The position numbers were made by a program, and so were the translations under genes. The notes under the pieces are model-generated. The model was not told the origin of the DNA. It made no database searches and saw only the letters and a program-made list of their open reading frames with translations. This document shows, piece after piece, positions 11,628 through 50,030 of a stretch of 52,576 nt of DNA; positions within the stretch are counted from its first letter, which is position 1, and every line of letters begins with the position of its first letter. The DNA is taken from IMG/VR virus record IMGVR_UViG_3300047560_000375, positions 1-52,576 of that record, one strand, 5' to 3'. Origin of the DNA: a virus. Its lineage: Duplodnaviria > Caudoviricetes.

Positions 11628-11670
11628 ATAATTATCCTACAAGTATTTATGCTATTTCCAGAATAATTAT
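11628..11670 (-). promoter_or_regulatory. Late promoter in the loop of an RBS-sequestering hairpin
   Basis: Minus strand ATAATTATTCT...AGGATAATTAT (11 bp, one G-U); CATAAATA at 11644-11651. Confidence 0.6.
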
Positions 11671-13106
11671 TTCTTTAAGGAATTCAATAGTGATTTGAGC
11701 TTAGTGCTCTGTACGTCAACTACGACATTTTTGCTCAATGGTTCCGGCATTATTTCTCCGGTAGATTCGTCTATAGTTGACTGGGGTTTAATTCTACTCA
11801 TAATGTCGTTAGGGCTTGGACTGGGTTTATATTTTGCTTGTTGTTCAGCATATCCGTCCGGATCGCTATCAGAAATTCGCATAGTTTCAATATCATAGTC
11901 CAAGTCAATCTTCATACCCACGCCCGTTGAACTACGTGATTTCATACATTGAATTTGATACTTACCCTTCTCCCGCATGTGACGGCTTGTAAAGATACCG
12001 AACACGTTATCTGCTGTGTTAATCTTACTAATACCACCAGCAATGTGACTGTGGTCGAATTCGATTTCATCGACGGCTGAACGATTTAACTGTGATGCAG
12101 TTACTAACAATATTCCTAGTTCTTTAGCTAAGTTACGCAATTCTTCTGCTACATACTTGTCTTTGATAAACTGGTCGTTAGGATTAACTTTCACAGAAAC
12201 TGGCATGACCAAGTCTAAGTAATCGACCATCACAAAGTCAACTTTGATACCTGTTTGAATCTGTACTTCTTTTAAGTAACTACGAATGTCATTGACGTTA
12301 CTCTGAGCAGGTAATGCTTTGACACGATATTTACCTGCATGTTTTGAAACCATCTTAACTTTCAAGTGTGTTGAATCAATGTCTTTGCGAATTGATTTAG
12401 TTCCTTGATTAGTCAACATAGCATCAGTACGCAAACTTGTTAGTTCTTCTGAAAGTTCTAGTGTGATGTAAACACCACTCATTCCAACTTGCAACCAATT
12501 CAATGCTAAGTTCATCATAACAAGTGACTTACCTGAACCTGAGCCACCTGCAAAGATGTTCAATTCACCACGGCTCATACCACCATAGAGAATCTTATCC
12601 ATTTGGGGCCAGCCAGTAGATACTTGTCCACCTGCATTAAAGTATTTGTTGATACGTGCCTTAGGATCAGCAAAGTAATCAGTACCCATGTCTTTCTGTA
12701 GACTAATCTGTACTGCGTCCTTGATTAGTTTTTCAACTGGTGCGAACTCACCCTTCTCAAGCATATCAGCGGCTTTAAGAATAGCACGTTCTAATTCTTG
12801 TCTTTTAGTGAATGCTTCAAACGCATCTAAGAACCACTCGTTGTGTCCTTCATTCAATTCAGGTATCGGTTCAATGTCAACACCTGTCATCGCTTGAATC
12901 TGAGTGCGATCAGGCAATACTTTGTATTTGTCTGTATGTTCTTTGTACATTTCAGCCACTGGTCTAAGTGACTTGTCAAAATTCTCACTGTTCATAATGT
13001 TCATAACCCGAGTATATAACTCAGCGTCAGACAACATCATTCTCAAAAATAATTTTTGTACGTCCGGTGTATATTCTATTTGTTTAGAATCCGTTTTGTT
13101 TACCAA
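11667..13106 (-). CDS. Replicative DNA helicase (DnaB/T4 gp41-like)
   Basis: Walker A GGSGSGKS, ITLEL, VDYLDL, TASQLNR, KSR. Confidence 0.92.
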   Translation of the reverse strand: MVNKTDSKQIEYTPDVQKLFLRMMLSDAELYTRVMNIMNSENFDKSLRPVAEMYKEHTDKYKVLPDRTQIQAMTGVDIEPIPELNEGHNEWFLDAFEAFTKRQELERAILKAADMLEKGEFAPVEKLIKDAVQISLQKDMGTDYFADPKARINKYFNAGGQVSTGWPQMDKILYGGMSRGELNIFAGGSGSGKSLVMMNLALNWLQVGMSGVYITLELSEELTSLRTDAMLTNQGTKSIRKDIDSTHLKVKMVSKHAGKYRVKALPAQSNVNDIRSYLKEVQIQTGIKVDFVMVDYLDLVMPVSVKVNPNDQFIKDKYVAEELRNLAKELGILLVTASQLNRSAVDEIEFDHSHIAGGISKINTADNVFGIFTSRHMREKGKYQIQCMKSRSSTGVGMKIDLDYDIETMRISDSDPDGYAEQQAKYKPSPSPNDIMSRIKPQSTIDESTGEIMPEPLSKNVVVDVQSTKLKSLLNSLKK

Positions 13107-14058
13107 TTTTCTTCCTCTGCATTTCTATCTTTATTTTACTATTAGTTGCATTCTGTATGATACTTAGTAGGGTAGGTAGTTTGCCATATTTAACTACCGC
13201 ATCGTTCACATCCTTCACATCATTATCCCAATTCGGCAAGCTAACTTGGTAGCCTAGTTCTAGTGCCCTATCACACATTTTCATTCCCGTAGCATCACGA
13301 TCGGGTACTACAATAATTTGTTTATTCAACGTTCCCAACAATAACGCTTGATCCGAGCTTATGTCATCGTGCATCACTGCTACGCCGTCAATACTCAATG
13401 CGTCAAATATACCTTCTGTTAAAATACAAAATTGCCATTCGGGTTTTTGAATATCGATATTGAATACATATCCCTGTTGTTGCTCATTAATGTATTTTGG
13501 AATTTTGTTGTCTAAGAATCTACTCGTATGTCCTACGATTTTATTCTTATATGTGTATGGTATAATGACACGGTTTGCCATTCTACCTTTTTCATGCGGT
13601 GTGATTAAGAAGGGATATTCACTAGTATCTATCTTGCGTTTGTGCAGATAGTCTACGTATACTTTGTGTTCTGTGTTGTTTTGGTCAACAAGTTCACCTT
13701 CAGGTAACTCGTGTTCGTCAAATTTTATTTTGATTTTCTTTTTAGGTTGAGTGAAGTCCAGTAAGTCTTTGTGTTGTAAACTTTCTAAACTCCATCTTTG
13801 TACTTGCTGTTCATCGATTCCGCACCACACTAATAAGTTGCGTGTTTTTGAATTGATACTACGACCTAGTGTGAAATTGCACTTGAAACCACAATTGAAA
13901 CAATGCATTGTCCAGTTGTGTCCATCAAATTTGATACCACCTCGCATACGCTTATCGGATCTATGCCCGAAGTGGTTGCAACAAACTGCGTTGAAACTTG
14001 TCCAACCACTTGACGTTTGTTTTTTCTTACCGGGTATTATAGATAGGATATCAAACAC
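13084..14058 (-). CDS. DNA primase (Zn finger plus TOPRIM; gp61-like)
   Basis: CC...HCFNC zinc site, TEGIFD, PDRD, KDVND; adjacent to the helicase. Confidence 0.88.
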   Translation of the reverse strand: MFDILSIIPGKKKQTSSGWTSFNAVCCNHFGHRSDKRMRGGIKFDGHNWTMHCFNCGFKCNFTLGRSINSKTRNLLVWCGIDEQQVQRWSLESLQHKDLLDFTQPKKKIKIKFDEHELPEGELVDQNNTEHKVYVDYLHKRKIDTSEYPFLITPHEKGRMANRVIIPYTYKNKIVGHTSRFLDNKIPKYINEQQQGYVFNIDIQKPEWQFCILTEGIFDALSIDGVAVMHDDISSDQALLLGTLNKQIIVVPDRDATGMKMCDRALELGYQVSLPNWDNDVKDVNDAVVKYGKLPTLLSIIQNATNSKIKIEMQRKKIGKQNGF

Positions 14059-14064
14059 TATGAC

Positions 14065-14093
14065 AGTATAACGTTTTGCTTACAGAAAATCAA
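14065..14093 (-). promoter_or_regulatory. sigma70-type promoter, leaderless to the primase gene
   Basis: TTGATT-N17-TATACT-N6-GTG. Confidence 0.65.
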
Positions 14094-14107
14094 CTATTGT
14101 GGTTGAT

Positions 14108-14872
14108 TTATCTTGCCAATATGTTTGTAACTGCACCTGCATTGCTTGTGAATTGCATTCTGATATAAGGATGGTATCCACGGATTGTGTAACCTTTGGT
14201 TTCAGTGACGTTTGCTAAATCAACTTCTGTTGTGATTGGGTACCAGTCAGCGTCAACTACAGTAGAACCTTCAATGACTACGTTTCCATAATATTCCGTA
14301 TAGTGAGTTTGGATAGTCAATATTGGATTATCATTTGTAGTGATTACACTAGTGTAATAGATATGGTTAGATGTGTTTGCGTTGTTTGTATTCGGGAATT
14401 GCTGACCAGTTGGTATTGTTACTGGATAGCTAGGAACAAAGCTAGGCAACACTGAATTAACAATATTCATGTCACCACGAGCGCCTGCATTCTGATCCAC
14501 GAAAACAGGATAATCAAATTGCCCAACTGGAATCTCTAATGAATAGTATGCTTTTTGTGCGTCAATATCTTCGAGTTCAGCTGGATTTACAAACAATGCA
14601 CAAATACCAGTTGCGGGTAATTGTAGAGTCAGTGCCTTTTGTAACAATACTTCGTTACCCTCACTGTTGATAATTCTACACGTGATTTCTTTCCCTGTAA
14701 TATCAACAGGTTTTTGCTCTTGGTTTAAGAACTGGAATTGAATCTGGTTGTCAACTCCCTTATGTAGGGTTAAAGGTTTGGCGTAGACTGGCATATATCT
14801 CCTTGGTGAATTGCCTGACAATAGTACGACAATATTTCGCTGAAAGTAATTAAAAACTGCGGTTGAATACAC
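14108..14872 (-). CDS. Beta-rich virion protein (baseplate-associated type)
   Basis: KGVDNQIQFQFLNQEQKPVDITG Ig-like pattern; late promoter at 14894-14900 with AGGAG RBS. Confidence 0.5.
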   Translation of the reverse strand: MYSTAVFNYFQRNIVVLLSGNSPRRYMPVYAKPLTLHKGVDNQIQFQFLNQEQKPVDITGKEITCRIINSEGNEVLLQKALTLQLPATGICALFVNPAELEDIDAQKAYYSLEIPVGQFDYPVFVDQNAGARGDMNIVNSVLPSFVPSYPVTIPTGQQFPNTNNANTSNHIYYTSVITTNDNPILTIQTHYTEYYGNVVIEGSTVVDADWYPITTEVDLANVTETKGYTIRGYHPYIRMQFTSNAGAVTNILAR

Positions 14873-14893
14873 AAATGTAGGCTCCTGATAATG

Positions 14894-14941
14894 TATTTAG
14901 CTTTATAAACTTTTTGTGTTTGGTTTGCCCGATACTAAATA
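14894..14941. promoter_or_regulatory. Divergent pair of late promoter motifs
   Basis: CTAAATA on the minus strand (14894-14900) and CTAAATA on the plus strand (14935-14941). Confidence 0.55.
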
Positions 14942-14959
14942 TATTGACTTTTGAGTACA

Positions 14960-15340
14960 ATGATACAAAACGAATTTTTTAAGAAACTCAGCGAAAACCA
15001 CCCCTTCATCACAGTATGTTCATATGCCAACCAAGATTACGTTGGGATAGTTCAAAACCGTGATGACATGGTTACCACTATATATGATTATGGATCTATA
15101 ATTGATCCCTTGATAAAAGAAAAATTCCTAGAATTAGGTGATGTTTGGTGGTGGGAAAGTAATAGACTTATTCCTATTAACTTATTTCTAAAGGAAGAAT
15201 GGGCCCTGTTTAGGCCCTATCTAAGAACATTCAATAACAAAAGTTTAGTTATCGTACACGGACCTGTTTGTAGTATGGCTGAATTAAACAAACGCAGGTC
15301 TAAGCGCCGCTCTATCACATTAGTAAAAAGACTACCTTAA
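14960..15340 (+). CDS. Hypothetical protein with a basic C-terminus
   Basis: Lone plus-strand ORF filling the gap; WWWESNR motif; KRRSKRR tail. Confidence 0.7.
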   Translation: MIQNEFFKKLSENHPFITVCSYANQDYVGIVQNRDDMVTTIYDYGSIIDPLIKEKFLELGDVWWWESNRLIPINLFLKEEWALFRPYLRTFNNKSLVIVHGPVCSMAELNKRRSKRRSITLVKRLP

Positions 15341-15558
15341 AAATCTGTATTCTCTGACAGATATTTGTCAAATCTTTCAACGGCTTCGTTAAAGTCAATA
15401 GCCCAGACTTTTGCCTTCATAATACTTCCAACAATTTCCATATCAAACGGAATCGATCCGTTGAATCTGAAACTATCAGGGACTTCTACTTCTATGATAA
15501 ATTCCTGTAAATTTTTAGCTCTGAAAATTAAATTGGTTGCCATGTCTGCTGAATTCAT
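15337..15558 (-). CDS. Hypothetical protein
   Basis: 73 aa; ATGA overlap with the upstream gene and AGGAGA RBS. Confidence 0.6.
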   Translation of the reverse strand: MNSADMATNLIFRAKNLQEFIIEVEVPDSFRFNGSIPFDMEIVGSIMKAKVWAIDFNEAVERFDKYLSENTDF

Positions 15559-16127
15559 GTTGATTCTCCTAGTAAATTCATATGCACTACGACAAGATGT
15601 GCATAGGCAACTGCGTGACTACGTTTGAATGTGTAGCCGTCTGTGCCCTTATCCCATACTGTTTTAGAAATGTCAGACCATGATTGACCTATCAAATGCT
15701 TTTTACCTGGACGAATGATTGCTAAAAACATAGCTAGTCTGGGTATGCTATCGATTGGTTCGGGCATTTTTTCTAAGTTATAGTATTGATTATTTAAGTG
15801 AATTAGCTTCTCTACAAAATCTTTATCATTGAGTTTAGACCAATCTGGATCACGCATTAATGAATGTAAGTGTTGTTCATCTTTTACGTTTTCATAAACA
15901 TGAACATTCAGTAAGTCTAATTTGAAATAGCCACGCTTTTCTGCCTCAACATAATCGATACTAGCCATGTCAGTTGCAGGATCATATGGTACATCAGTAA
16001 TGTAAACACCCGTAGCATGATGACGAATAGGTTTAACATTACGCATTGCCGCACGTGTGTGTTGAATTAGTTTCAATAATTCATCACGATTGCCAAAGTC
16101 AATATCTACGTCTGAATCTATTCTCAT
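15555..16127 (-). CDS. Miniature DNA polymerase III alpha (DnaE, family C)-like protein
   Basis: DVDIDF, HATGV, GYFKLDLL, RPG and YTFKRSHAVAY match DnaE motifs in order within 190 aa. Confidence 0.8.
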   Translation of the reverse strand: MRIDSDVDIDFGNRDELLKLIQHTRAAMRNVKPIRHHATGVYITDVPYDPATDMASIDYVEAEKRGYFKLDLLNVHVYENVKDEQHLHSLMRDPDWSKLNDKDFVEKLIHLNNQYYNLEKMPEPIDSIPRLAMFLAIIRPGKKHLIGQSWSDISKTVWDKGTDGYTFKRSHAVAYAHLVVVHMNLLGEST

Positions 16128-16684
16128 CTTGGTGTTACCAATCCTGCTTTCATTAATTTCATATATCCCTGTTGTACAACAATCGCTTGTCGTTCAGCAT
16201 CTTCCACAGCTTTGTGACTAGTTGAATGACCACCGTCTTTTAAACTTACTTGAGTAACTTCGTACAATGTTCTTGTGTCTCGCATTGACCAGAAGGGCCA
16301 GGGGATAGGGTTGGGTTTATCACTAACCTGTCTCCAGGCATGCTCCATAACGATAAGGTCAAATGGAGCGCCATTAGACCAGACAGCACGGCGATTCCAA
16401 CAAAACTTATAAAGGGTCTCCATGCACTCTTTAAACGGGATTCTACCTTCTTCACTGAATGCTTCTTCGAGGGCAGCCGGGTTTTGTTCGCTCCACCACC
16501 GTAATGTATCTTCATTTATGCTCCTATTATATATCTCAGTTTGATCCTCTACTGTAGGTTTTAACTCAAGTCGTTCTACAACACCTGAACCTTTAGGATC
16601 AAATCTAACTGCACCAATAGAAAGAATAACACAATCAGGTGTTGTGTTCAAACTCTCAATGTCAATCATAATATCATTTGCCAT
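16124..16684 (-). CDS. DEDDh 3'-5' exonuclease
   Basis: IMIDIES, WSNGAPFD, RDTRT, HKAVEDA. Confidence 0.88.
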   Translation of the reverse strand: MANDIMIDIESLNTTPDCVILSIGAVRFDPKGSGVVERLELKPTVEDQTEIYNRSINEDTLRWWSEQNPAALEEAFSEEGRIPFKECMETLYKFCWNRRAVWSNGAPFDLIVMEHAWRQVSDKPNPIPWPFWSMRDTRTLYEVTQVSLKDGGHSTSHKAVEDAERQAIVVQQGYMKLMKAGLVTPR

Positions 16685-16685
16685 T

Positions 16686-16931
16686 TTATTCCCAGCGTAG
16701 TAAAAATAATGTTAAATCTGCATCGTTGCATAAGACAATCTCTCCCATTTCTGTATTGTCAATCCAACGATTGTCACCTGTTTCTTCTCTGTATCCGGAC
16801 TTACCAAATGTTTCAACACACCAGTTGTATATTTCAGATGCATCTACTTCTCCCTTACCTTTCCAAGAAATAGTATGGATGTTTTTTTTACTTCCATAAT
16901 AACGTTCTGTTTTGTGTGTGAAACTGCTCAT
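16686..16931 (-). CDS. Small FxLRW-family protein
   Basis: WCVETFG...LTLFLLRWE. Confidence 0.75.
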   Translation of the reverse strand: MSSFTHKTERYYGSKKNIHTISWKGKGEVDASEIYNWCVETFGKSGYREETGDNRWIDNTEMGEIVLCNDADLTLFLLRWE

Positions 16932-17296
16932 TGTTTTAATACGTGTACAATATACTTTTTCTCTAACCTATCGGTGAATGTTTCAACATCATCCATGTTG
17001 TCAAACACTGCACCTAAAACTTCTCTGGGATCTTTTATATCACCACTTCTACGAATGCATTCCATCAAATCTTGTGAAGTTGATGTTGCTAACAATGTAG
17101 AACTCAACCACAACACATAACCGTTTGTTAATACGATTCCTATTTCCCAACTCTTAGAATCGTTAGCAATCATTTCAACTAACACATACAACTTTTCAGA
17201 ATATACATCTAAGCCAGTGATGTGGTTGTTCCAAGTAACTTTGTACTTGCCTTTGATTATTTCTAATTCACAGAGGTCAGTTTTTCCACATTTCAT
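16928..17296 (-). CDS. Hypothetical protein (lacks the array motif)
   Basis: Fills the gap with an ATGA overlap; start uncertain. Confidence 0.55.
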   Translation of the reverse strand: MKCGKTDLCELEIIKGKYKVTWNNHITGLDVYSEKLYVLVEMIANDSKSWEIGIVLTNGYVLWLSSTLLATSTSQDLMECIRRSGDIKDPREVLGAVFDNMDDVETFTDRLEKKYIVHVLKQ

Positions 17297-17555
17297 AAGT
17301 AAACTTTGCTTTATCGCCCCAGACTTCAACGTACAATATACCGCCTGCTAACCAAAAATCCCATCCACTGTGTCGCTCACCTAAATTTCTGCGACACCAC
17401 TTGATATGTTCCATTTCATTAATTTTACGAAAGTTTAAATCAATTTTATATAACACGTGACCATTGCGTGTGTCCCGTTCTACACCGCTACGGTCTTCTT
17501 GTTGACCATATTGTTGTAACGGGGCGAATGTTCCTGTGCTTGTTCCTAATGCCAT
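17277..17555 (-). CDS. Small FxLRW-family-related protein
   Basis: KWCRRNLGERHSGWDF...FTYEMW. Confidence 0.6.
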   Translation of the reverse strand: MALGTSTGTFAPLQQYGQQEDRSGVERDTRNGHVLYKIDLNFRKINEMEHIKWCRRNLGERHSGWDFWLAGGILYVEVWGDKAKFTYEMWKN

Positions 17556-17773
17556 TATTGATACCTCAATGCGAACCATGTCGCCAATTCTTCTTTGTAA
17601 AACTTGAATATTGTATGTCGATTATACACTGCATCACCTGACCAGTCATCGTATTTGGGCTTGTGATATTCAAAGTCAAAGTCTATACCCTGAACATACC
17701 CTTGACTTCGTAGTTCTCTGACAATATCTAAGACTTCACTAGGAAGCCAATCTACTATTTTGACTTCTTTCAT
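17555..17773 (-). CDS. Small FxLRW-family protein
   Basis: FKFYKEELATWFALRY. Confidence 0.75.
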   Translation of the reverse strand: MKEVKIVDWLPSEVLDIVRELRSQGYVQGIDFDFEYHKPKYDDWSGDAVYNRHTIFKFYKEELATWFALRYQ

Positions 17774-18018
17774 TCTGGAAACATTATCCTAAACCAAGTA
17801 GCATACTTATCTTCTTGGAACGTAAGGTTCCAAACTGTCACGTGGCCCCTATAAGTCACGCCGTGCCCTTCCATTTCTACTTCTTCTGTGCCTTTCTTAG
17901 CAATCCAACCTTCTCCGCCGATTGAGTTGTGAAGGTAGTGAAGTCTCGGGCCTACATTCTTAGCAAGCCAGTTTTCGTGTTCACCGTATAGTTGTTTGAT
18001 TTTAATTGTGACCGCCAC
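17770..18018 (-). CDS. Small FxLRW-family protein
   Basis: WLAKNVG...LTFQEDKYATWFRIMF. Confidence 0.7.
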   Translation of the reverse strand: MAVTIKIKQLYGEHENWLAKNVGPRLHYLHNSIGGEGWIAKKGTEEVEMEGHGVTYRGHVTVWNLTFQEDKYATWFRIMFPE

Positions 18019-18264
18019 TTATCCTCCCCATCTTAGTGCGGCTAGTAAATAATCACGCTCGTGTCTAAATTTTGATTTAATCATGCCCTCTTCGATTTCC
18101 CATAGTGCATGACGTTCACAATTGTCAATCGCTTCATATAACCAAATAATAAATTCTGAACACACTTCATCTTCTTTTTCTATAGGAAAATGCACACGTA
18201 GTTCATACCAACCTGGCTTCATATCAACCCAATTTTTATTGTAGATTACGTTATGAATTCTCAT
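18019..18264 (-). CDS. Small FxLRW-family protein
   Basis: WLYEAI...FRHERDYLLAALRW. Confidence 0.75.
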   Translation of the reverse strand: MRIHNVIYNKNWVDMKPGWYELRVHFPIEKEDEVCSEFIIWLYEAIDNCERHALWEIEEGMIKSKFRHERDYLLAALRWGG

Positions 18265-18527
18265 GCCCATCGCAAAATAAACCATTCCATATCTTTTTGT
18301 TCACGAAACCAAAACCTAGAATTATTTATATACCATCGACCACCGGGAACAAACACACCGCCTTCAGGTCGGGGTCCATATGTTGTCTCACACCATTCTA
18401 CCATTTCATCCCATTCTGTTTTAAACCAAGTTGGAACATCTGCAACAAATTCAGGTTGCACAGTAAAATATCTTGCTCCGTAAACTCGCCCTTCATCAAT
18501 TAATAATGCTTTGTCAATTATCGTCAT
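18261..18527 (-). CDS. Small FxLRW-family protein
   Basis: WCETTYG...FWFREQKDMEWFILRW. Confidence 0.78.
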   Translation of the reverse strand: MTIIDKALLIDEGRVYGARYFTVQPEFVADVPTWFKTEWDEMVEWCETTYGPRPEGGVFVPGGRWYINNSRFWFREQKDMEWFILRWA

Positions 18528-18805
18528 GTGAATCTCAATAAAAAAATAATATATTTTTTCTCGTCCATAATTTTATATCCATCAGTTATATTGCCGTCTA
18601 CTATGTTCATCTTTATACCATAGTTTGCTTCAATGTAATCTTCAAACTCAAATGCATCAAATTGTCCAGCAAGGTCATTCAGTGATTCCATGTACTCTAT
18701 GCGAACTTTTTTTAATGCACTCCAGTAATCCCAGCGTTTCTTACGAAATTCCATTTCTGGGCCATCGTCATCATAATCTTGAAATGATTTAGGAATGTTA
18801 GTCAT
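18524..18805 (-). CDS. Small FxLRW-family protein, YG(I/V) subtype
   Basis: YGIKM...IMDEKKYIIFLLRF. Confidence 0.75.
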   Translation of the reverse strand: MTNIPKSFQDYDDDGPEMEFRKKRWDYWSALKKVRIEYMESLNDLAGQFDAFEFEDYIEANYGIKMNIVDGNITDGYKIMDEKKYIIFLLRFT

Positions 18806-18806
18806 A

Positions 18807-19067
18807 TCAAACCCATCGTAGAATAAACCACTCAGCGTCTTGTTTATTTTCAAACACATAGTCACTACCTAATCTACGATAGTCACCGGTACATGTCCCA
18901 GCTAACCAAATCTGTATATCAGTCGCTTGAGGACCATTCTTAAAATAAAATTTTACAGGTGTCCAACCGGTTTCAATTAACATAGTTGCTATGATTCCTT
19001 CATCAATTTCTTTGGCAATTTGTTTGCCAATCTCATCCATCATTTCTTCTTCTAGTGTTTTTCTCAT
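18807..19067 (-). CDS. Small FxLRW-family protein
   Basis: WLAGTC...FENKQDAEWFILRW. Confidence 0.78.
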   Translation of the reverse strand: MRKTLEEEMMDEIGKQIAKEIDEGIIATMLIETGWTPVKFYFKNGPQATDIQIWLAGTCTGDYRRLGSDYVFENKQDAEWFILRWV

Positions 19068-19408
19068 ACCCATCTTAATGTCATCCAGGTAAATAATTCT
19101 TCGTTTACTAAAAATCGTGTCATAGCAAAATGACAACCCTCTGTTTCTTCTGCATACTTCCACAAATGCGGTGGTTGTGTAAGTATCCACGATTCAACAC
19201 TTGGTCTAACATCAATTGCTATGCAGTTATGAGGGTATAACACAGTTTCGTTTTGATTCTCAACGATTAAGTAAGGCTTGAATGAAACTTGACCGTTTTC
19301 TACTTTAAAGGGGCTAGATGGGTCACCGGGCTTGGTAAATTTTTCAGTAACCTCTTTCTGAAGATTGCCACCCATCATCTTTAACACTCTGTTTATTGAT
19401 TCTAACAT
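19064..19408 (-). CDS. Small FxLRW-family protein
   Basis: VESWI...NEELFTWMTLRW. Confidence 0.7.
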   Translation of the reverse strand: MLESINRVLKMMGGNLQKEVTEKFTKPGDPSSPFKVENGQVSFKPYLIVENQNETVLYPHNCIAIDVRPSVESWILTQPPHLWKYAEETEGCHFAMTRFLVNEELFTWMTLRWV

Positions 19409-19851
19409 TAACTCCACCTCAACTTGAACATGATATAGTCTTGCTCATTCATAAAAGCAAAGTAAACAAAGTCACTACCACCAATATCATTGAACCACCA
19501 ATCTTCGTGGGTATCACCGTCTATGCCTATTCCAGTTTGACGATATACTCTATTAATATCCATGCGATACTTGAATCTACATTTAAGTTCACACCAATCT
19601 CGCATATCTTCGTAACCAAATCTAAGTCCGCCGGGTCCCCAATCAGCTATACATTGATAAGCATAATGTGTGGTATCACATCTAAACACATATTTGTACT
19701 TAGAATAGAAGTCACTTACCTTATCAGCATAGCGGACAACATCAGGATCACGATTGTGTCTATAGCTTCGCCATGTAAGGTAGCCACTCTTTGCTAACTT
19801 TCGGTGAGCAAGATATCGGCGCCAACGTGCTTTAAGTCTTAGTATTTTCAT
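19408..19851 (-). CDS. FxLRW-family protein with an N-terminal extension
   Basis: DWCELKC...FAFMNEQDYIMFKLRW. Confidence 0.75.
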   Translation of the reverse strand: MKILRLKARWRRYLAHRKLAKSGYLTWRSYRHNRDPDVVRYADKVSDFYSKYKYVFRCDTTHYAYQCIADWGPGGLRFGYEDMRDWCELKCRFKYRMDINRVYRQTGIGIDGDTHEDWWFNDIGGSDFVYFAFMNEQDYIMFKLRWS

Positions 19852-20134
19852 AAACTAATAAATCAAATGCTGTTGCATATTGTGTTTCAGGCTCCATATG
19901 AAAGCCTGTGCCCCACACTACCCATACTTTTCTTTTGTATGCTTTCTCCCAGAAGATGCGTTTACCCGTGACTGTCTTTCTAGGTAAAAAAGCAAAGTAC
20001 TCTGTCCAAGGATAGCAATCTGCGCCACCTTCTATAATTGTGTATTCCATAGGGTTAAATCCTGCAGGTATATGTCTTCCAATTCCATTAAAACTCATGT
20101 TGTCTCCGATGCTTCTGTTCCAAAGTATTTTCAT
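19832..20134 (-). CDS. Hypothetical protein (lacks the array motif)
   Basis: 100-aa ORF with coupled overlaps; WTEYFAFLPRKTVTGKRIFW. Confidence 0.65.
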   Translation of the reverse strand: MKILWNRSIGDNMSFNGIGRHIPAGFNPMEYTIIEGGADCYPWTEYFAFLPRKTVTGKRIFWEKAYKRKVWVVWGTGFHMEPETQYATAFDLLVYENTKT

Positions 20135-23336: not shown

Positions 23337-24824
23337 TCATTTATAGGTAAGTTTTTCCAAGTCAAATGGATAGTTAGCTTCTTTATAGAATGCTTTTCTT
23401 TGTGTTAGATGGCGTTTTGCAAACTTGCAGTTACTTGTAATGTCCCAAATCTGAACAAAGTCTTTGTCCTCTGCTTTACGAATGCCACGACCTATTGACT
23501 GAATAACTCTGACAAACGATTTGCCAGGCTCCAGCAGTACCAAATTAAAGATACGAGGAATATTAATTCCAACAGCGGCGACGCCGTAAGTCGCAATAAT
23601 AACTTTCTTATTGCTTGTGGCAACTTCATCATATTCTTCCTTACGTTCTGTTAATTTCATTTCACCCGAAACGAATGCAACATCAGGTGCATCTTTGAGT
23701 AAGCTGAATATGCTACTCAAACGTTTTTGTAGTTCTTTTCCTGCACCAATTCTATCTACAAGAATTAGCGTGTTTCCGCTTTCTGAGATTTTATTAACTA
23801 AGTCAGTGATGGTGTCTAATCGTTTACTATCCTCAGTTAGATATTTCAATTCACTTTGATAATTTGTAAACTCAACATCATCTTTTAGTTGAACGATGTT
23901 AACGTGACATTGTGCAAGTACACCTTTGTCTTGTAATTCTTTTGCTGATAATTTACCGATTACTTGTCCGATTGAAACATACAATGCTTGTGCTTCATAG
24001 ATTGCTTTAGGAATAGTTCCTGTCAATCCCCAGCGAATAGGTACATGAGAAAACGTACTAGTTAATAACGTTTTGATAACATCAGCTTTGGCCATGTGTA
24101 CTTCATCGACCATGACGCAAACAACATCTTCAATGAAGTCTTGTATAGTGAAGTCTGCTTCACCTGCTTGTGTATCTTTGAGTAAATTGTTTAGACTTTG
24201 CCATGTGCAGATTGTGTGTTTTTTGTTATAGTCTTTTCTATCACCAAAGTACACACCAACGTCTAATCCAACGTTCTTATAATCTTCTTCTGTCTGCACG
24301 ACTAGACTTTTGTTGGGTACAATTACAATACTGCGCCCATAGTCTTGTATTGAATAACTGAGTGCGGCTGTTGTAATTGTTTTACCTGCACCAGTAGCAA
24401 CTTCTTGAATTGATTGTGGGTTCGCTAAAAAGTTATTAATGACTTCAATCTGATAGTCACGTAACTTAATAGCTTCACCTTGTTTGGGGTGACCTTTCGG
24501 CCAGGTATATGCGGAAAAGGTGTCCTCTGTTACTGGTTTGAAATTGAATGTAGTCTGGTACTGACGACCATCTTCTAGTTCAATATCATACCCAGCTTGG
24601 TCTAGTAATGGAAGAATCTCGGGCAGTAGATTTACAAACGTACTACCACCGAGACTAAAGTAACTGACTTTGCCATTCCAACGACCTAATCGGACACTTG
24701 GTAAATATCTAGCACCGGGCTTCTCATACTCAAACATCTTCATCAATGCTTTTCTGTCGCCTAGTTCAAGTCCTTCTAGCTTTACATTGACTTCATCTTT
24801 AATTATTAGTTTACATTGTTTCAT
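23337..24824 (-). CDS. uvsW: SF2 DNA helicase, UvsW-like
   Basis: LRDYQ, ATGAGKT, DEVH, GLTGT, GINIP, QSIGRGIR. Confidence 0.88.
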   Translation of the reverse strand: MKQCKLIIKDEVNVKLEGLELGDRKALMKMFEYEKPGARYLPSVRLGRWNGKVSYFSLGGSTFVNLLPEILPLLDQAGYDIELEDGRQYQTTFNFKPVTEDTFSAYTWPKGHPKQGEAIKLRDYQIEVINNFLANPQSIQEVATGAGKTITTAALSYSIQDYGRSIVIVPNKSLVVQTEEDYKNVGLDVGVYFGDRKDYNKKHTICTWQSLNNLLKDTQAGEADFTIQDFIEDVVCVMVDEVHMAKADVIKTLLTSTFSHVPIRWGLTGTIPKAIYEAQALYVSIGQVIGKLSAKELQDKGVLAQCHVNIVQLKDDVEFTNYQSELKYLTEDSKRLDTITDLVNKISESGNTLILVDRIGAGKELQKRLSSIFSLLKDAPDVAFVSGEMKLTERKEEYDEVATSNKKVIIATYGVAAVGINIPRIFNLVLLEPGKSFVRVIQSIGRGIRKAEDKDFVQIWDITSNCKFAKRHLTQRKAFYKEANYPFDLEKLTYK

Positions 24825-25831
24825 TTAACATCTATGGGTTGAGAATTCACAAACTGGACTATCTTTCCAATTTTATGTGGTGCGAACGAATCGTCGGTGC
24901 TTCTAAATTTAATACTAACAGGTTTTATACTTTCTTTAAATCCTTTAGGGATTCGACCATACGAATCTGTCTCACCTGTTTTAATGCCTGCTAGCTCTAG
25001 TGCTTTTCTCAAATCTGCCTTCACTGTGTTACCAATAAATGTTGCAGTCGAAAAATAAGCATAATCAAAACCCATTTGCTTGAGTAATGGAACTATGGTT
25101 AGTGCATCTGTTATTTCTACCTTAGTTTCAAAGGTAGATGCAAACACCTGTTCTTTATTTTGTAAATCAATTGCATCATCACTGATGCTGATTCCGTAAG
25201 ACACTAGTGTTGCTAATGTTTTTATATCAGTATTTAATTCTATGTTACTTATCGCATTATTTAATGATTCATTTGTCGCAACAACAAACAAATTGCCATT
25301 ACGCTTGATTAGAGTAGGACTCCAATATTTTACATCAGTGTATGGATATAAATTTTCTACTAATGCTGTGGTTACAGGGCAGTAGTTTACTACAGGAAAA
25401 TGTTTTTGTGCTAGTGGTAGTAGAATTTTAAGTTGATAAGAACCATACTTAGCAACATAATACCTATTTTCTTTATCCCACACAAATATGTTATTTTCTT
25501 GCTTCCTGAACTCAGACACAAAGTTGCGATTGTATGGACACTTGAACACAATGTCCCCGTTTACAATTTCAACATGTCCACTTGTGTATTCAGGCTTGCT
25601 TTCAATTATAGTTGCAGTCCATGGTAGGTATAATAATTTATCTACATCAAGGTCAAACTTATTGAACTGCCTACGATACTTATAAAGTATTTTATAAAAT
25701 AATTCAACTTGATTGGTAGTGACACGATCTAGGTGCTGGATGCTTTCGATAAACTTTTCATCATATCTACTAAGTTTAATCTTGCTTATCATAAAATAAG
25801 CAATGTGTTCTGCCTTTGTTAAATCTGCCAT
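24821..25831 (-). CDS. Hypothetical protein
   Basis: Start reassigned to MADLTKAEH, downstream of the terminator and promoter. Confidence 0.7.
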   Translation of the reverse strand: MADLTKAEHIAYFMISKIKLSRYDEKFIESIQHLDRVTTNQVELFYKILYKYRRQFNKFDLDVDKLLYLPWTATIIESKPEYTSGHVEIVNGDIVFKCPYNRNFVSEFRKQENNIFVWDKENRYYVAKYGSYQLKILLPLAQKHFPVVNYCPVTTALVENLYPYTDVKYWSPTLIKRNGNLFVVATNESLNNAISNIELNTDIKTLATLVSYGISISDDAIDLQNKEQVFASTFETKVEITDALTIVPLLKQMGFDYAYFSTATFIGNTVKADLRKALELAGIKTGETDSYGRIPKGFKESIKPVSIKFRSTDDSFAPHKIGKIVQFVNSQPIDVK

Positions 25832-25837
25832 CTTGAT

Positions 25838-25866
25838 ATTGTACACATATATGTATCGATTTTCAA
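25838..25866 (-). promoter_or_regulatory. sigma70-type promoter, leaderless
   Basis: TTGAAA-N17-TACAAT-N6-ATG. Confidence 0.7.
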
Positions 25867-25877
25867 CAGATAAAGGC

Positions 25878-25899
25878 AAAAAGGGGACCGAAGTCCCCG
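25878..25899 (-). terminator. Intrinsic terminator
   Basis: GGGGAC-TTCG-GTCCCC-TTTTT on the minus strand. Confidence 0.85.
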
Positions 25900-46455: not shown

Positions 46456-47712
46456 TTATTTATCTCGCAATTTAGAAAGATTGGGATTTACATCTTTTAA
46501 GTAATGATTTCTGTGGTTGTCGAATATATCAGTATATTTAAAAAACTGCTGTAAGTTTTCCGTGTAATCTACGCTTTCCCTGCATTTTTCTCGCACTGTC
46601 TTTAATCTAGAATGAAACAGAAAACCCTGGTATCTACAGTGATTCTTTACCCACTCGTCTATTTTATTCAAGCATTCTGTTTTGTAGTCTAATGGAAGAT
46701 ATGTAAAATCATAGTAGTCTGGTTGATTCAGAATGATAGGGGCTACTGTTACTTTGTTTCTTTTATATTCTCTGTTGAAACTTTCTGCATATTCGAATAA
46801 TTCTGTAATGTACGCTAGATTGCTTTTCTGTAGCACTGGGTTAATTGTAATTGATATATTGTCGCTGGGTAGTGCTACGACTTTTCTAAAGTTACTATCA
46901 ATTTGTTTCCAGTTACTTGGGTATCTATTATATTCTTGTATTGGGCCAACGCCATCAATACTTGCTAGAAAAGTTACTTTCTTGAAGTAGGGTAATAGCG
47001 AATAGAAGTCTTTCTTAGTGTTTGTTAAGTTAGTGCTTATTTGAAGTTCGATATGTTTACTATGCTCAGTGTTGACCATGTATTCCATGAACTCGTAGTT
47101 TTTATCTATTATTGTAGGTTCGCCGCCCGCCGCATAGTATTTCTTTAAGTTAGGTATCTGTTTATATACTTCATTGTTGAATATTGCAGTCTCATACCAA
47201 GTGTTATAATCTTTATCTGTTGAAGAAAAGATAATAGTTTTTGCCTGTTCGTTTATGTTTTTAATCTCTTTATTGTAAGATGAACTGGCTTCTGTATAGC
47301 AATAACGACATGATAGATTGCAAAGATTACCAAATCGTAGGTCAAAGAATTCAATGGCAGCGTCAATGTCTTTATCTTCTAGTGACTGATTTAGTTTATC
47401 TCTAAAACTTGCAGTGTTAAACCACTCTTGATTATATCGTGTTCTGTGACTAGAATTACTATACTTCTCAGATCGGTAACAGTCCTCACAACCATCGATG
47501 GGCTTACCCTCAATCATATCCTTGCGTATACTCTTGTAGTCAGCACTATTTAAGATTGTGTCGATAGTCTGACTACCCAAGTTGTAGTTGTTCCCGTTTT
47601 CATCTTTGATAAATCGGTTAGACATACAACATATTCTAGGGCTTCCGTCGGTGTGTGCCGCAATGTGGATCCACGGAAAAACACAAAAACTTTTATTGTT
47701 TGACAAATTCAT
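46456..47712 (-). CDS. Radical SAM protein with an N-terminal twitch/SPASM-like Cys cluster (paralog 2)
   Basis: CNLSCRYC, GGEP, ASIDG; N-terminal FC..PW.H...CC...CEDC. Confidence 0.9.
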   Translation of the reverse strand: MNLSNNKSFCVFPWIHIAAHTDGSPRICCMSNRFIKDENGNNYNLGSQTIDTILNSADYKSIRKDMIEGKPIDGCEDCYRSEKYSNSSHRTRYNQEWFNTASFRDKLNQSLEDKDIDAAIEFFDLRFGNLCNLSCRYCYTEASSSYNKEIKNINEQAKTIIFSSTDKDYNTWYETAIFNNEVYKQIPNLKKYYAAGGEPTIIDKNYEFMEYMVNTEHSKHIELQISTNLTNTKKDFYSLLPYFKKVTFLASIDGVGPIQEYNRYPSNWKQIDSNFRKVVALPSDNISITINPVLQKSNLAYITELFEYAESFNREYKRNKVTVAPIILNQPDYYDFTYLPLDYKTECLNKIDEWVKNHCRYQGFLFHSRLKTVREKCRESVDYTENLQQFFKYTDIFDNHRNHYLKDVNPNLSKLRDK

Positions 47713-47722
47713 TTGCTTTTTG

Positions 47723-48979
47723 TTATTTATATACTATGTCAAACAGTTCAGGATTTACATCACGTAAATAAAATTGTCTGTGTTTGTCAAAAATGTTAGT
47801 GAATTCTCTAAAACGAGCCAATTCATGCTCGTAGGGAGTATCTGTCATGCATTTGTTTTTTAGTTCTTTCATTTTAGATGTAAACCACACATCTTGAAAT
47901 TTGCATTTGGTGTCAATCCAATGTTGTATCTTGTCCCAACAGTATGTCTTATATTCTAGTGGTAAATATGTTAAATCTAACTGATTGGGGACATACAATA
48001 TTATAGGTGAGATTGCAACGACTGGTTTGTTTTCAGCAATATTGAACGATTCTATATATTCAAATAGATCAACCATATACCCAAGGTTTACGTTTTGAAT
48101 AACGGGCGTTACGTTTATTGATATGTTTGACTTTTTGTTTGAAATTAACTTTTTGAAGTTTTTATCAATCTGTTGCCATTTGCTTGGATATCTAATATAT
48201 TCCTGAATTACTCCAAAACCATCAATGCTTGCAAAAAATACAACATGCTTGAATTGATTGATTATATTCAGAAATCTATCTTGCATGTTAGTCATGTTTG
48301 AATTCAACTTCAATGTAATGTCTTTTGCTTTGTCCTGTTCAATCAAGTATTCTAACACTTCATAGTTCTTTTCGATTATCGTTGGTTCTCCACCAGTGAC
48401 ATATAGTTCTTTAATGTTGTCCAGCTGTGATGTTATGTTATCAAAGAATTGACTAGTAGAATACCAGCCGTTGATATCGATAACTGGTTTTATTTCCATG
48501 AAAGAAGATATTGCTGATTTTTCGTTTAGTTCTATCAATTCTTTTTCATATTGAATTGAATTATCGGGACTACAACTTTTGCAGTTGAGATTGCACATAT
48601 TACCGAAACGTAAATCAAAATATTCCACTGTTTCTGTAATCTCAGTTCCCTCCATTAATTTTTGGCTGATTGACGGAACGTCACTCCACTTTAAATTATA
48701 CTGACTTCTATAGCTAGCACCAGTAGTATTTTCTTCTATTTGATAGCAACGTTCACACCCTGCAACAGGGATGCCTTGAATCATTTTTTCTCTAATGTCT
48801 TTGTATCCATTAGAGTTTATTATATCAGATAATGAATCTCTACCTAAATTAAACGCATTGCCATTGTCTTTGTTGACTGTAACTGAGGATATACAGCAAG
48901 GCTTTACATCACCATTGGGTGCTGTGGCAATGTGCATCCAAGGAAGTACACAAAAACTTTTATTGTTTGAAAAATCCAT
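47723..48979 (-). CDS. Radical SAM protein with an N-terminal twitch/SPASM-like Cys cluster (paralog 1)
   Basis: CNLNCKSC, GGEP, ASIDG; N-terminal FC..PW.H...CC...CERC. Confidence 0.9.
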   Translation of the reverse strand: MDFSNNKSFCVLPWMHIATAPNGDVKPCCISSVTVNKDNGNAFNLGRDSLSDIINSNGYKDIREKMIQGIPVAGCERCYQIEENTTGASYRSQYNLKWSDVPSISQKLMEGTEITETVEYFDLRFGNMCNLNCKSCSPDNSIQYEKELIELNEKSAISSFMEIKPVIDINGWYSTSQFFDNITSQLDNIKELYVTGGEPTIIEKNYEVLEYLIEQDKAKDITLKLNSNMTNMQDRFLNIINQFKHVVFFASIDGFGVIQEYIRYPSKWQQIDKNFKKLISNKKSNISINVTPVIQNVNLGYMVDLFEYIESFNIAENKPVVAISPIILYVPNQLDLTYLPLEYKTYCWDKIQHWIDTKCKFQDVWFTSKMKELKNKCMTDTPYEHELARFREFTNIFDKHRQFYLRDVNPELFDIVYK

Positions 48980-50030
48980 TTACTTTATCAGATATGTATT
49001 CTATTTCTAAATCTGTTAGTTCAGGGTATAATGGCAGACTCAACACACCTCGACTTAACATGACACTGGTACTTAGCATATCTGGTTTTTTAAATTTAGT
49101 AGCAGTAGGCAAATCACCTAATACATATTCGTAATGCTTTTTAGTATCGATACCGTCTAACATCATATGAGTGTGCAAACTGTTTCTGTCAGGAAGATAC
49201 ATTACAAACTTTTGATGTGCGTGTGGGAATCTAGTATCACTGAAGCATTCAAGCGGCAGATCCTTGAATTGTTCACACCAATACTCAGATATTTTCTTTC
49301 TCTTTGCTTGCCACTCGTCTATGTATTTTATTCTTACCATCAAGTGGGCACAATCTAATTCGCTCATTTTTGAATTGGTGCCAACATCATGGAAATAAGG
49401 TTTACAATTGTCTCGATAACTTGATGCATAAAGATATAACTTTTGGTCATTGGTTACGATGGCGCCACCATTACCACTAGCGTTTAAGTTCTTAGTAGGA
49501 TCAAAACTGATTGCCATGCCACTACCAACGTTGCCACCTGCTTCTAACCAATGCTGTGCCCCGTCAACAATGACTCCGTGACTTTCTTGATAGGTGGCGT
49601 GAGGCCATGGTCTACGACCGGCAAAGCCCATGAGACAATCATATATTCCTGCTTGCTGTTTTTCTTGTGACAAGATACCATACTTGTCAGTGTCACCGAG
49701 TTCAATATCCCAGCCCGCAGTAACGAATGCGTTTAGTGTTGCCGGATATGTTAAGTTAGGCAAACGAACTTTAGGATTGCCATCCATTGTTTCGTTGTGC
49801 TTAATCTTTTTCCAACGTGCAATAATTTCTAATGCTTGTGTACCACTGTGTACCGTGATTGCATATTTTGTTTTAGTTCTGTGCTTTAGCCATTCTTCAA
49901 ATGACCGAGTAAAATGTCCACCAACTAGTTGACCGTCTTTCAACGAATCAACTGTGGCTTGCAACAATTCATCTTTAAGATTTTTAAATTGTCTTTTCAG
50001 ACCAAAATGGGGAATTTGCAAGCCACTCAT
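48960..50030 (-). CDS. DegT/DnrJ/EryC1/StrS PLP-dependent sugar aminotransferase
   Basis: SGTQAL, DGAQ, SFDPTKNL, GGAIVT, NSKMSE, LSLPLYP. Confidence 0.9.
   Translation of the reverse strand: MSGLQIPHFGLKRQFKNLKDELLQATVDSLKDGQLVGGHFTRSFEEWLKHRTKTKYAITVHSGTQALEIIARWKKIKHNETMDGNPKVRLPNLTYPATLNAFVTAGWDIELGDTDKYGILSQEKQQAGIYDCLMGFAGRRPWPHATYQESHGVIVDGAQHWLEAGGNVGSGMAISFDPTKNLNASGNGGAIVTNDQKLYLYASSYRDNCKPYFHDVGTNSKMSELDCAHLMVRIKYIDEWQAKRKKISEYWCEQFKDLPLECFSDTRFPHAHQKFVMYLPDRNSLHTHMMLDGIDTKKHYEYVLGDLPTATKFKKPDMLSTSVMLSRGVLSLPLYPELTDLEIEYISDKVNGFFKQ

Follow-up and report, generated by a model that had tools for sequence, protein, structure and literature searches.

The virus record IMGVR_UViG_3300047560_000375, a complete record of 52,576 bases referred to here as the window, carries on its minus strand a 190-aa open reading frame (ORF; 15555..16127). 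The ORF most likely encodes one chain, the C-terminal one, of a much reduced nucleotidyltransferase of the C family (Pol III alpha/DnaE-type) that consists of two chains and belongs to T4-like group 2.2 jumbo phages. The encoded protein, termed the C-unit below, contains the palm Asp residues D6, D8 and D71 together with a reduced finger that bears the RPG and KSHA.AYA motifs, and would correspond to the metal- and template-binding part of a split minimal Pol III alpha. The record is judged to be 14% complete and is therefore a fragment of a genome of about 350 kb.

An initial annotation, made from the sequence alone, had listed five DnaE-like motifs in order, and all five are present in the 190-aa translation: DVDIDF at residues 6-11, HATGV at 37-41, GYFKLDLL at 66-73, RPG at 139-141 and YTFKRSHAVAY at 165-175. 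The first two catalytic Asp residues form a DxD element at the extreme N-terminus (D6-V-D8-I-D10, 16098..16112), and the third is preceded by Lys (K69-L-D71, 15915..15923). The finger motifs follow as R139-P140-G141 (15705..15713) and K168-R-S-H171-A-V-A-Y-A176 (15600..15626), all four elements lying on the minus strand. A scan of 1.84 billion cluster representatives returned 374 clusters (50% identity) at E<=1e-3, with 231 at E<=1e-10, and nearly all full-length members of the family are 185-215 aa long. In an alignment of 79 members (A1), which are 30-58% identical to the C-unit of the window, D6, D8, K69, D71 and P140 are invariant, and D10, A26, H37, G40, W96, A132, R139, K168, H171 and A176 are conserved in at least 90% of the sequences. 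The earlier statement that the Asp triad is kept thus extends to the family.

The profile built from these 79 sequences places the conserved residues on bacterial replicases. When it was compared with the PDB, nine of the nine distinct sequences matched were Pol III alpha (E. coli, Thermus and Mycobacterium), with E values from 2e-5 to 1.3e-4. In the alignment to E. coli alpha, K69 and D71 fall on K553 and D555, R139-G141 on residues 639-641, and FK(K/R)SHA.AYA pairs with NKSHSAAYA at approximately 753-765; the DxDxD element pairs with PDFDVD at 400-405, in a stretch that is sub-threshold by itself. The pairing of HATGV with the HAAGV of DnaE, proposed in the initial annotation, lies outside every aligned stretch of this profile. 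The C-unit belongs to phrog_11778, named 'DNA polymerase' (E 5.5e-57); two PHROGs families of long polymerases are also matched, weakly and in their tails. A tblastn search found a homologue in 96 phage records; all 40 among the matches listed are jumbo phages of 284-490 kb, and the homologues include Atu_ph07 (9e-42), PA5oct (2e-38), GAP32 (1e-24) and CBB. A scan of cellular genomes, by a method that detects close relatives only, found no close relative. The likeness of the C-unit to DnaE is homology rather than chance, and it is visible only at the level of profile or fold.

The AlphaFold2 model of the C-unit, computed with the same alignment, is compact, with a predicted local distance difference test (pLDDT) of 96.0 and a predicted TM-score (pTM) of 0.88. 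In a Foldseek search of the PDB with this model, ranks 1-13 are all Pol III alpha, with a probability of up to 0.99 and query TM-scores (TMq) of 0.38-0.50. These results agree with the Pol-beta-like palm that had been expected of the protein. The chain starts five residues before the DxD element and ends opposite approximately residue 770 of the 1160-residue E. coli alpha. D8 and D71 are separated by 63 residues, against 152 between D403 and D555 in E. coli alpha, and the thumb is therefore missing. The C-unit has no PHP, thumb, clamp-binding, helix-hairpin-helix (HhH) or OB domain; the initial annotation was right to describe the PHP and C-terminal domains as absent, and no Pfam domain is found in the protein.

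A protein of about one-sixth the length of bacterial DnaE that goes unrecognized by Pfam might also be read as the decayed remnant of a full-length phage dnaE, an open frame without function. The residues expected to be catalytic are nevertheless invariant in 79 sequences, down to 30% identity; a length of about 190 aa is kept across the 374 clusters; and the model of the protein is compact and very confident. Selection was estimated by the Nei-Gojobori method with 56 distinct C-unit coding sequences, namely that of the window and 55 from 80 close IMG/VR loci whose C-units are 77-84% identical to it. For the 1232 of 1540 pairs with 0.05<dS<2 (306 were saturated), the ratio of nonsynonymous to synonymous substitution rates (dN/dS) has a median of 0.098 and a maximum of 0.323, with a median dN of 0.123 and a median dS of 1.186. 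The exonuclease gene directly upstream, discussed below, has a median of 0.138 (904 of 1378 pairs). Neither gene is decaying, and the C-unit is under purifying selection. Relaxed selection or loss of the Asp triad had been named at the outset as marks of decay, and the data show the opposite on both counts. On the basis of dN/dS and the invariant residues we rejected the decayed remnant, to which we attach practically no credence.

The GS loop of DnaE, which binds the nucleotide, precedes the DxD motif together with its helices. We looked for this part of the palm in five larger relatives: Phosso, Paride, GAP32 and the uncultured contigs G001 (264 kb, 69% complete) and G002 (303 kb, 86% complete), the latter two having C-units approximately 81-84% identical to that of the window. 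Positions ~16-97 of PF07733 match separate short frames (171-287 aa) in all five. The ORFs of this N-terminal unit (N-unit) are 169-188 aa long and end in ...WGVGRGSSV.SY.L.LIG.H...EFL[NK]. They lie far from the C-unit, at 34 kb in GAP32, 43 kb in Paride, ~49 kb in G001, ~95 kb in G002 and 224 kb in Phosso. The position of the cut was read from P0165, a DnaE fragment with PHP and PF07733. In profile comparisons with this protein, the match of the N-unit ends at residue 395 (...FERFL; E 1.8e-5), and that of the C-unit begins at residue 400 (ISMPDFDIDF; residues 400-422), the second match being weak (E 0.025). Together the two units thus make up adjoining parts of a single palm. N-units are very common: the family has at least 8000 proteins, many of which are named 'DNA polymerase III alpha subunit' by JGI. 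At the N-unit loci of Phosso, Paride, GAP32 and G001 (L012, L013, L014 and L104), a conserved ORF of 113-153 aa comes after the N-unit, and after it an ORF of 108-144 aa that is GroES/gp31-like by eye.

These findings bear on the alternative that the 190-aa protein is a complete minimal family C polymerase, working in a T4-like replisome with the upstream DEDDh exonuclease as its epsilon-like proofreader. The Asp triad and the finger motifs that such an enzyme would need are present and invariant, but in five of five relatives the nucleotide-binding half of the palm is encoded by a separate gene. The initial annotation had left open both a minimal polymerase in one 190-aa chain and a split family-C polymerase; the separate N-unit gene in the larger relatives speaks for the split form and against the single chain.

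The two units also occur naturally as one protein. Three fused forms of 375-376 aa (P0046, P0151 and P0152) carry the units in N-then-C order. P0046 (375 aa) matches the C-unit query over its residues 190-370; its N-unit (...VIGVGRGSSSASL...KEFIKD) runs straight into its C-unit (...ADFDIDTKN...). A search with P0046 gave the two further fused proteins, each of 376 aa, which are 81% and 78% identical to it and come from different sources. The fusions are independent support for the two units acting as one module. The model of P0046 has a pLDDT of 83.7 overall and mostly above 85 for residues 81-375; residues 1-80 are poor (41-58) because the alignment used (A5) omitted stand-alone N-units. All 19 of its Foldseek matches at E<=1e-3 are DnaE or PolC, the best being 2hpi (3.8e-8, TMq 0.56), and the matches that come next, Cid1-type transferases at E>=0.07, are far from significant. 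All three fused proteins are from short metagenomic contigs, the longest of 5.9 kb, and P0046 found no locus in the viral contig collection. A search for longer proteins with the C-unit of the window returned no fused form; the fusions came through the cluster representatives and P0046.

The proposed mechanism follows from this division of the palm. The C-unit alone would be unable to bind an incoming nucleotide properly, the GRGS loop and the helices that precede it being placed on the separate protein of ~170 aa. The N- and C-units would dock non-covalently to form one active site, and the assembled enzyme would be a template-directed DNA polymerase, predicted to be poorly processive because the thumb, the clamp-binding part and the OB domain are all missing. 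It may act as an accessory polymerase beside a family B replicase, in short-patch synthesis such as primer extension or repair. Primer extension is a reasonable guess because of the fixed place of the gene by those for primase and helicase and by analogy with B. subtilis DnaE; it is solely the position beside the primase-helicase genes that suggests extension of primase-made primers.

The same parts list can be given another meaning, in which the two-chain module has been repurposed for untemplated 3'-end tailing of DNA or RNA, or for synthesis of a nucleotide-derived small molecule. The parts that hold the duplex and confer processivity (thumb, clamp-binding, HhH and OB) have been lost, a separate family B polymerase can replicate the genome, and the fold belongs to the Pol-beta nucleotidyltransferase class, with Cid1-type enzymes next in Foldseek, at the non-significant E values given above. 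The RPG and KSHA.AYA motifs are nonetheless almost invariant, and in DnaE they belong to the finger, the domain described by Iyer et al. 2021 (PMC7824862) as contacting the template and the incoming nucleotide. The significant matches, in sequence and in fold, are all C-family DNA polymerases, and the position of the gene in one block with those for primase and replicative helicase is fixed. We consider a repurposed enzyme unlikely, and favor the two-chain, template-directed polymerase.

Several results weigh against this assignment to a two-chain polymerase. The C-unit has no match in Pfam even at E<=1 and none in NCBIfam, and a phmmer search of the PDB with the single sequence returned two chance matches only. 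With the C-unit alone, Foldseek gives nothing in the PDB at E<=1e-3, the best match being at 1.1e-2. No N-unit was found in the 52.6-kb window by PF07733 at E<=1, and tblastn of the window with three N-units returned nothing below E 1.3; the N-unit partner of this phage's C-unit is thus one that we infer from its relatives. Full-text literature searches turned up no study in which a member of the family was examined by biochemistry or genetics, and polymerase activity, templating, heterodimer formation and a role in primer extension or repair are what we infer for the assembled enzyme. A processive polymerase is unlikely without a thumb and a clamp-binding part. A three-chain complex prediction with the C-unit, the N-unit of G001 and the exonuclease as partner, which scored 0.01 against a mark of 0.32 with controls not run, speaks neither for binding nor against it.

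The replicase beside which the enzyme may act is found in the relatives as well. PF00136, the family B polymerase (PolB), is present in all five of them, in open frames of 825-1013 aa. No PolB is found in the window, as the initial annotation had observed, and this would fit the single-chain polymerase described above as the replicase of the phage. The window is, however, a fragment of approximately 14% of the genome, so that the absence is uninformative; the observation stands and carries no weight. The PHP domain was found in none of the five relatives, whereas the control genomes gave 14 of 14. A stand-alone PHP domain or a PolB elsewhere in the genome had been proposed for a check, which in the relatives turned up the second and not the first.

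The exonuclease gene (16124..16684, minus strand) encodes a 186-aa protein and overlaps the start of the C-unit ORF by 4 nt; bases 16124-16127, common to both frames, read ATGA on the minus strand, as originally described. The protein matches PF16473 (Rv2179c-like) at E 3.3e-32, with 112 bits against a cut-off of 27 and over profile positions 1-174 of 177, and its DEDDh residues D8, E10, D109, H157 and D162 are invariant in 31 sequences. The sole PDB entries matched by its profile are 8kel (E 1.2e-6) and 8ken, both of which are T4 DexA (PMC12153337). A tblastn search with the exonuclease found homologues in 541 phage records, at 23-36% identity in cultured phages; among them are genes annotated dexA in KVP40, JS98 and Aeromonas phages, and small phages, lambdoid ones included, contribute further exonucleases. 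Three of the small phages were checked and no mini-Pol III was found in them. By its sequence, then, the protein is an ordinary DexA-type 3'-5' nuclease, and a proofreading partnership with the C-unit is hypothetical.

The association of the two genes was followed through two sets of loci. Among the 80 close loci, 74 have enough sequence upstream (six are too short), and the exonuclease lies upstream of the C-unit in every one of the 74: in 59 the genes overlap by 4 nt, in five by 11 nt, and in ten the exonuclease stands behind a gap of 201-388 nt. A further 102 distant loci were fetched with two other family members. At least 700 nt of upstream sequence is available in 97 of these (five are too short), and the exonuclease was found within 2.5 kb of the C-unit in none of the 97, with a hidden Markov model of this lineage that would miss a very divergent nuclease. 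In Phosso and GAP32 more than 40 kb separate the PF16473 match from the C-unit, and Paride gave no such match. Overlaps of 4 nt are routine in the window, where they occur at 15 of 72 same-strand junctions, and an overlap of any length occurs at 33 of 72 (counted on a crude longest-ORF gene set). The adjacency of exonuclease and C-unit is a trait of one lineage, and shared ancestry alone can explain it; the exonuclease is most likely a neighbor acquired in this freshwater lineage.

These data complete the case on the single-chain polymerase with an epsilon-like proofreader. The ATGA overlap, the invariant DEDDh residues and the place of the exonuclease, immediately or a short way upstream in all 74 close loci with enough sequence, are all as such a pair would have them. 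Against this stand the occurrence of DexA/Rv2179c-type exonucleases in hundreds of phage records, small phages without a mini-Pol III among them; the 0 of 97 distant loci and the remote or missing nuclease in Phosso, GAP32 and Paride; the frequency of 4-nt overlaps; the absence of PHP, the dock of epsilon; and PolB in five of five relatives, with the window only ~14% of its genome. We judge this combination very improbable. The initial annotation erred in likening the nuclease to an epsilon-type proofreader, the protein being of the PF16473/T4 DexA type and not DnaQ and its linkage being confined to one lineage; the ATGA overlap that it pointed to is of a common kind in the window.

Epsilon binds alpha via the PHP domain. 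C-family polymerases are known to have a separate DEDDh exonuclease that is encoded next to them or works with them (PMC12926913), and E. coli epsilon (DnaQ) and the nuclease of the window are alike in this respect. The latter differs in belonging to PF16473 and not to DnaQ, in having no PHP for docking, and in that its association with the polymerase is not conserved beyond a single lineage. With T4 DexA it shares the DEDDh 3'-5' exonuclease type and a size of ~190-230 aa; what sets it apart is that its gene overlaps that of a mini-Pol III C-unit. It is conceivable, though we think it quite unlikely, that in this lineage the exonuclease was recruited as a third, trans-acting subunit, which would yield a proofreading, thumb-less C-family polymerase of ~550 residues in three proteins that extends primase-made primers for the PolB replicase. 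If true, the three-protein enzyme would be a natural minimal version of the Bacillus division of labor between DnaE and then PolC.

The surroundings of the C-unit gene are conserved on its other side. A 129-aa ORF on the plus strand, convergent to the C-unit (14951..15340), matches phrog_11637 (E 6.3e-31). All 80 close loci and 98 of the 102 distant ones have it at this place, downstream of the C-unit and on the other strand; it is the most constant neighbor of the C-unit, more so than the exonuclease. A small reverse gene also stands at the matching place in the annotated genomes of Phosso, Paride and GAP32. A Protein Atlas search with this ORF gave no functional lead, the top score being 0.81 with no Pfam family attached. 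Beyond it are a DnaG-type primase (13084..14058, minus strand; Toprim_2 and DNAG_N matches) and a DnaB/gp41-type replicative helicase (11667..13106, minus strand; DnaB_C, E 4.2e-18). The order C-unit, convergent ORF, structural protein, primase and helicase is common to Phosso, Paride and GAP32. A 73-aa ORF on the minus strand (15337-15558) lies between the C-unit and the convergent ORF and has a homologue in one of the 80 close relatives (L029); it looks like an accessory insertion because the reverse ORF directly abuts the C-unit in the other close relatives. A promoter and terminator scan of 13000-18000 gave 16 promoter-like sites against 18.3 expected, that is, no signal in this region. 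Among sequencing runs searched for the DNA, none of RNA was listed.

Other parts of the window contain features that we record as such. From 16686 to 20134 the minus strand holds about 12 tightly packed small ORFs, most of whose products end in ...LRW and some in LRY or LRWxx. The window also encodes a UvsW-like helicase; directly upstream of its gene, with a 4-nt overlap, is a 352-aa ORF (24821-25879, minus strand) without a Pfam or PHROG match, and its positional counterpart in GAP32 bears the annotation 'DNA polymerase exonuclease subunit'. At 46456-50030, again on the minus strand, there are two paralogues of 418 aa in tandem, each with an N-terminal SPASM domain (residues 10-79) ahead of a radical-SAM domain (approximately 125-308), and they are followed by a DegT/DnrJ-type aminotransferase. 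These last genes could be a sugar- or base-modification cassette.

The closest known system is the minimal Pol III alpha that group 2.2 jumbo phages encode in split form. Iyer et al. 2021 (Viruses 13:63, PMC7824862) described it from sequence and placed Atu_ph07 in group 2.2; in their account the mini-Pol III accompanies a family B polymerase, with which it is suggested to cooperate in one-strand synthesis or repair, and it is put forward as a model for the ancestral Pol III module. For Atu_ph07, Attai et al. 2018 (PMC6102473) had earlier annotated both an alpha and an epsilon subunit of Pol III; the main text of the PA5oct omics paper does not mention a DNA polymerase or an exonuclease. The C-unit of the window is a member of the Iyer et al. 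family, matched by description and host-phage group and not by accession numbers. As in the C-terminal unit of those passages, it is a small stand-alone protein with the Mg2+-binding and template-binding part and no other Pol III domains. In the published system the part that binds the nucleoside triphosphate is on a distantly encoded protein and a PolB stands alongside; the five larger relatives have both, whereas neither is found in the window itself. On the published description there is no essential difference between the two, and the lineage of the window adds a DexA-type exonuclease directly upstream. The family itself has been known since 2021; new here are the three natural fused forms of 375-376 aa, the passages of Iyer et al. 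describing only split ones. The window further contributes a well-supported member of the family from a freshwater lineage not in culture, a fold model of very high confidence, statistics on selection, the support that the fusions lend to two-chain assembly, and a clear result against any general link to the exonuclease. The idea of an ancestral module has been in print since 2021.

With the bacterial enzymes DnaE and PolC (2hnh, 5fku, 2hpi, 5lew and 3f2b), the C-unit shares the Pol-beta-like palm, the DxD element and the Lys that stands before the third Asp. The order of the RPG and KSHA.AYA motifs is also shared, as is, by Foldseek, the fold. In contrast to these enzymes, a complete palm is not found on one chain: the GRGS loop is on the N-unit, the C-unit begins at DxD, and the cut between the chains falls between ...FERFL and PDxDxD. 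The C-unit also stops within the first part of the fingers. It is ~190 aa long, and both units together amount to ~360 aa, against 1160 residues for E. coli alpha (5fku). If active, the two chains would be the smallest known C-family polymerase core, at ~360 residues, and a natural experiment on what a bacterial replicase can lose and still work.

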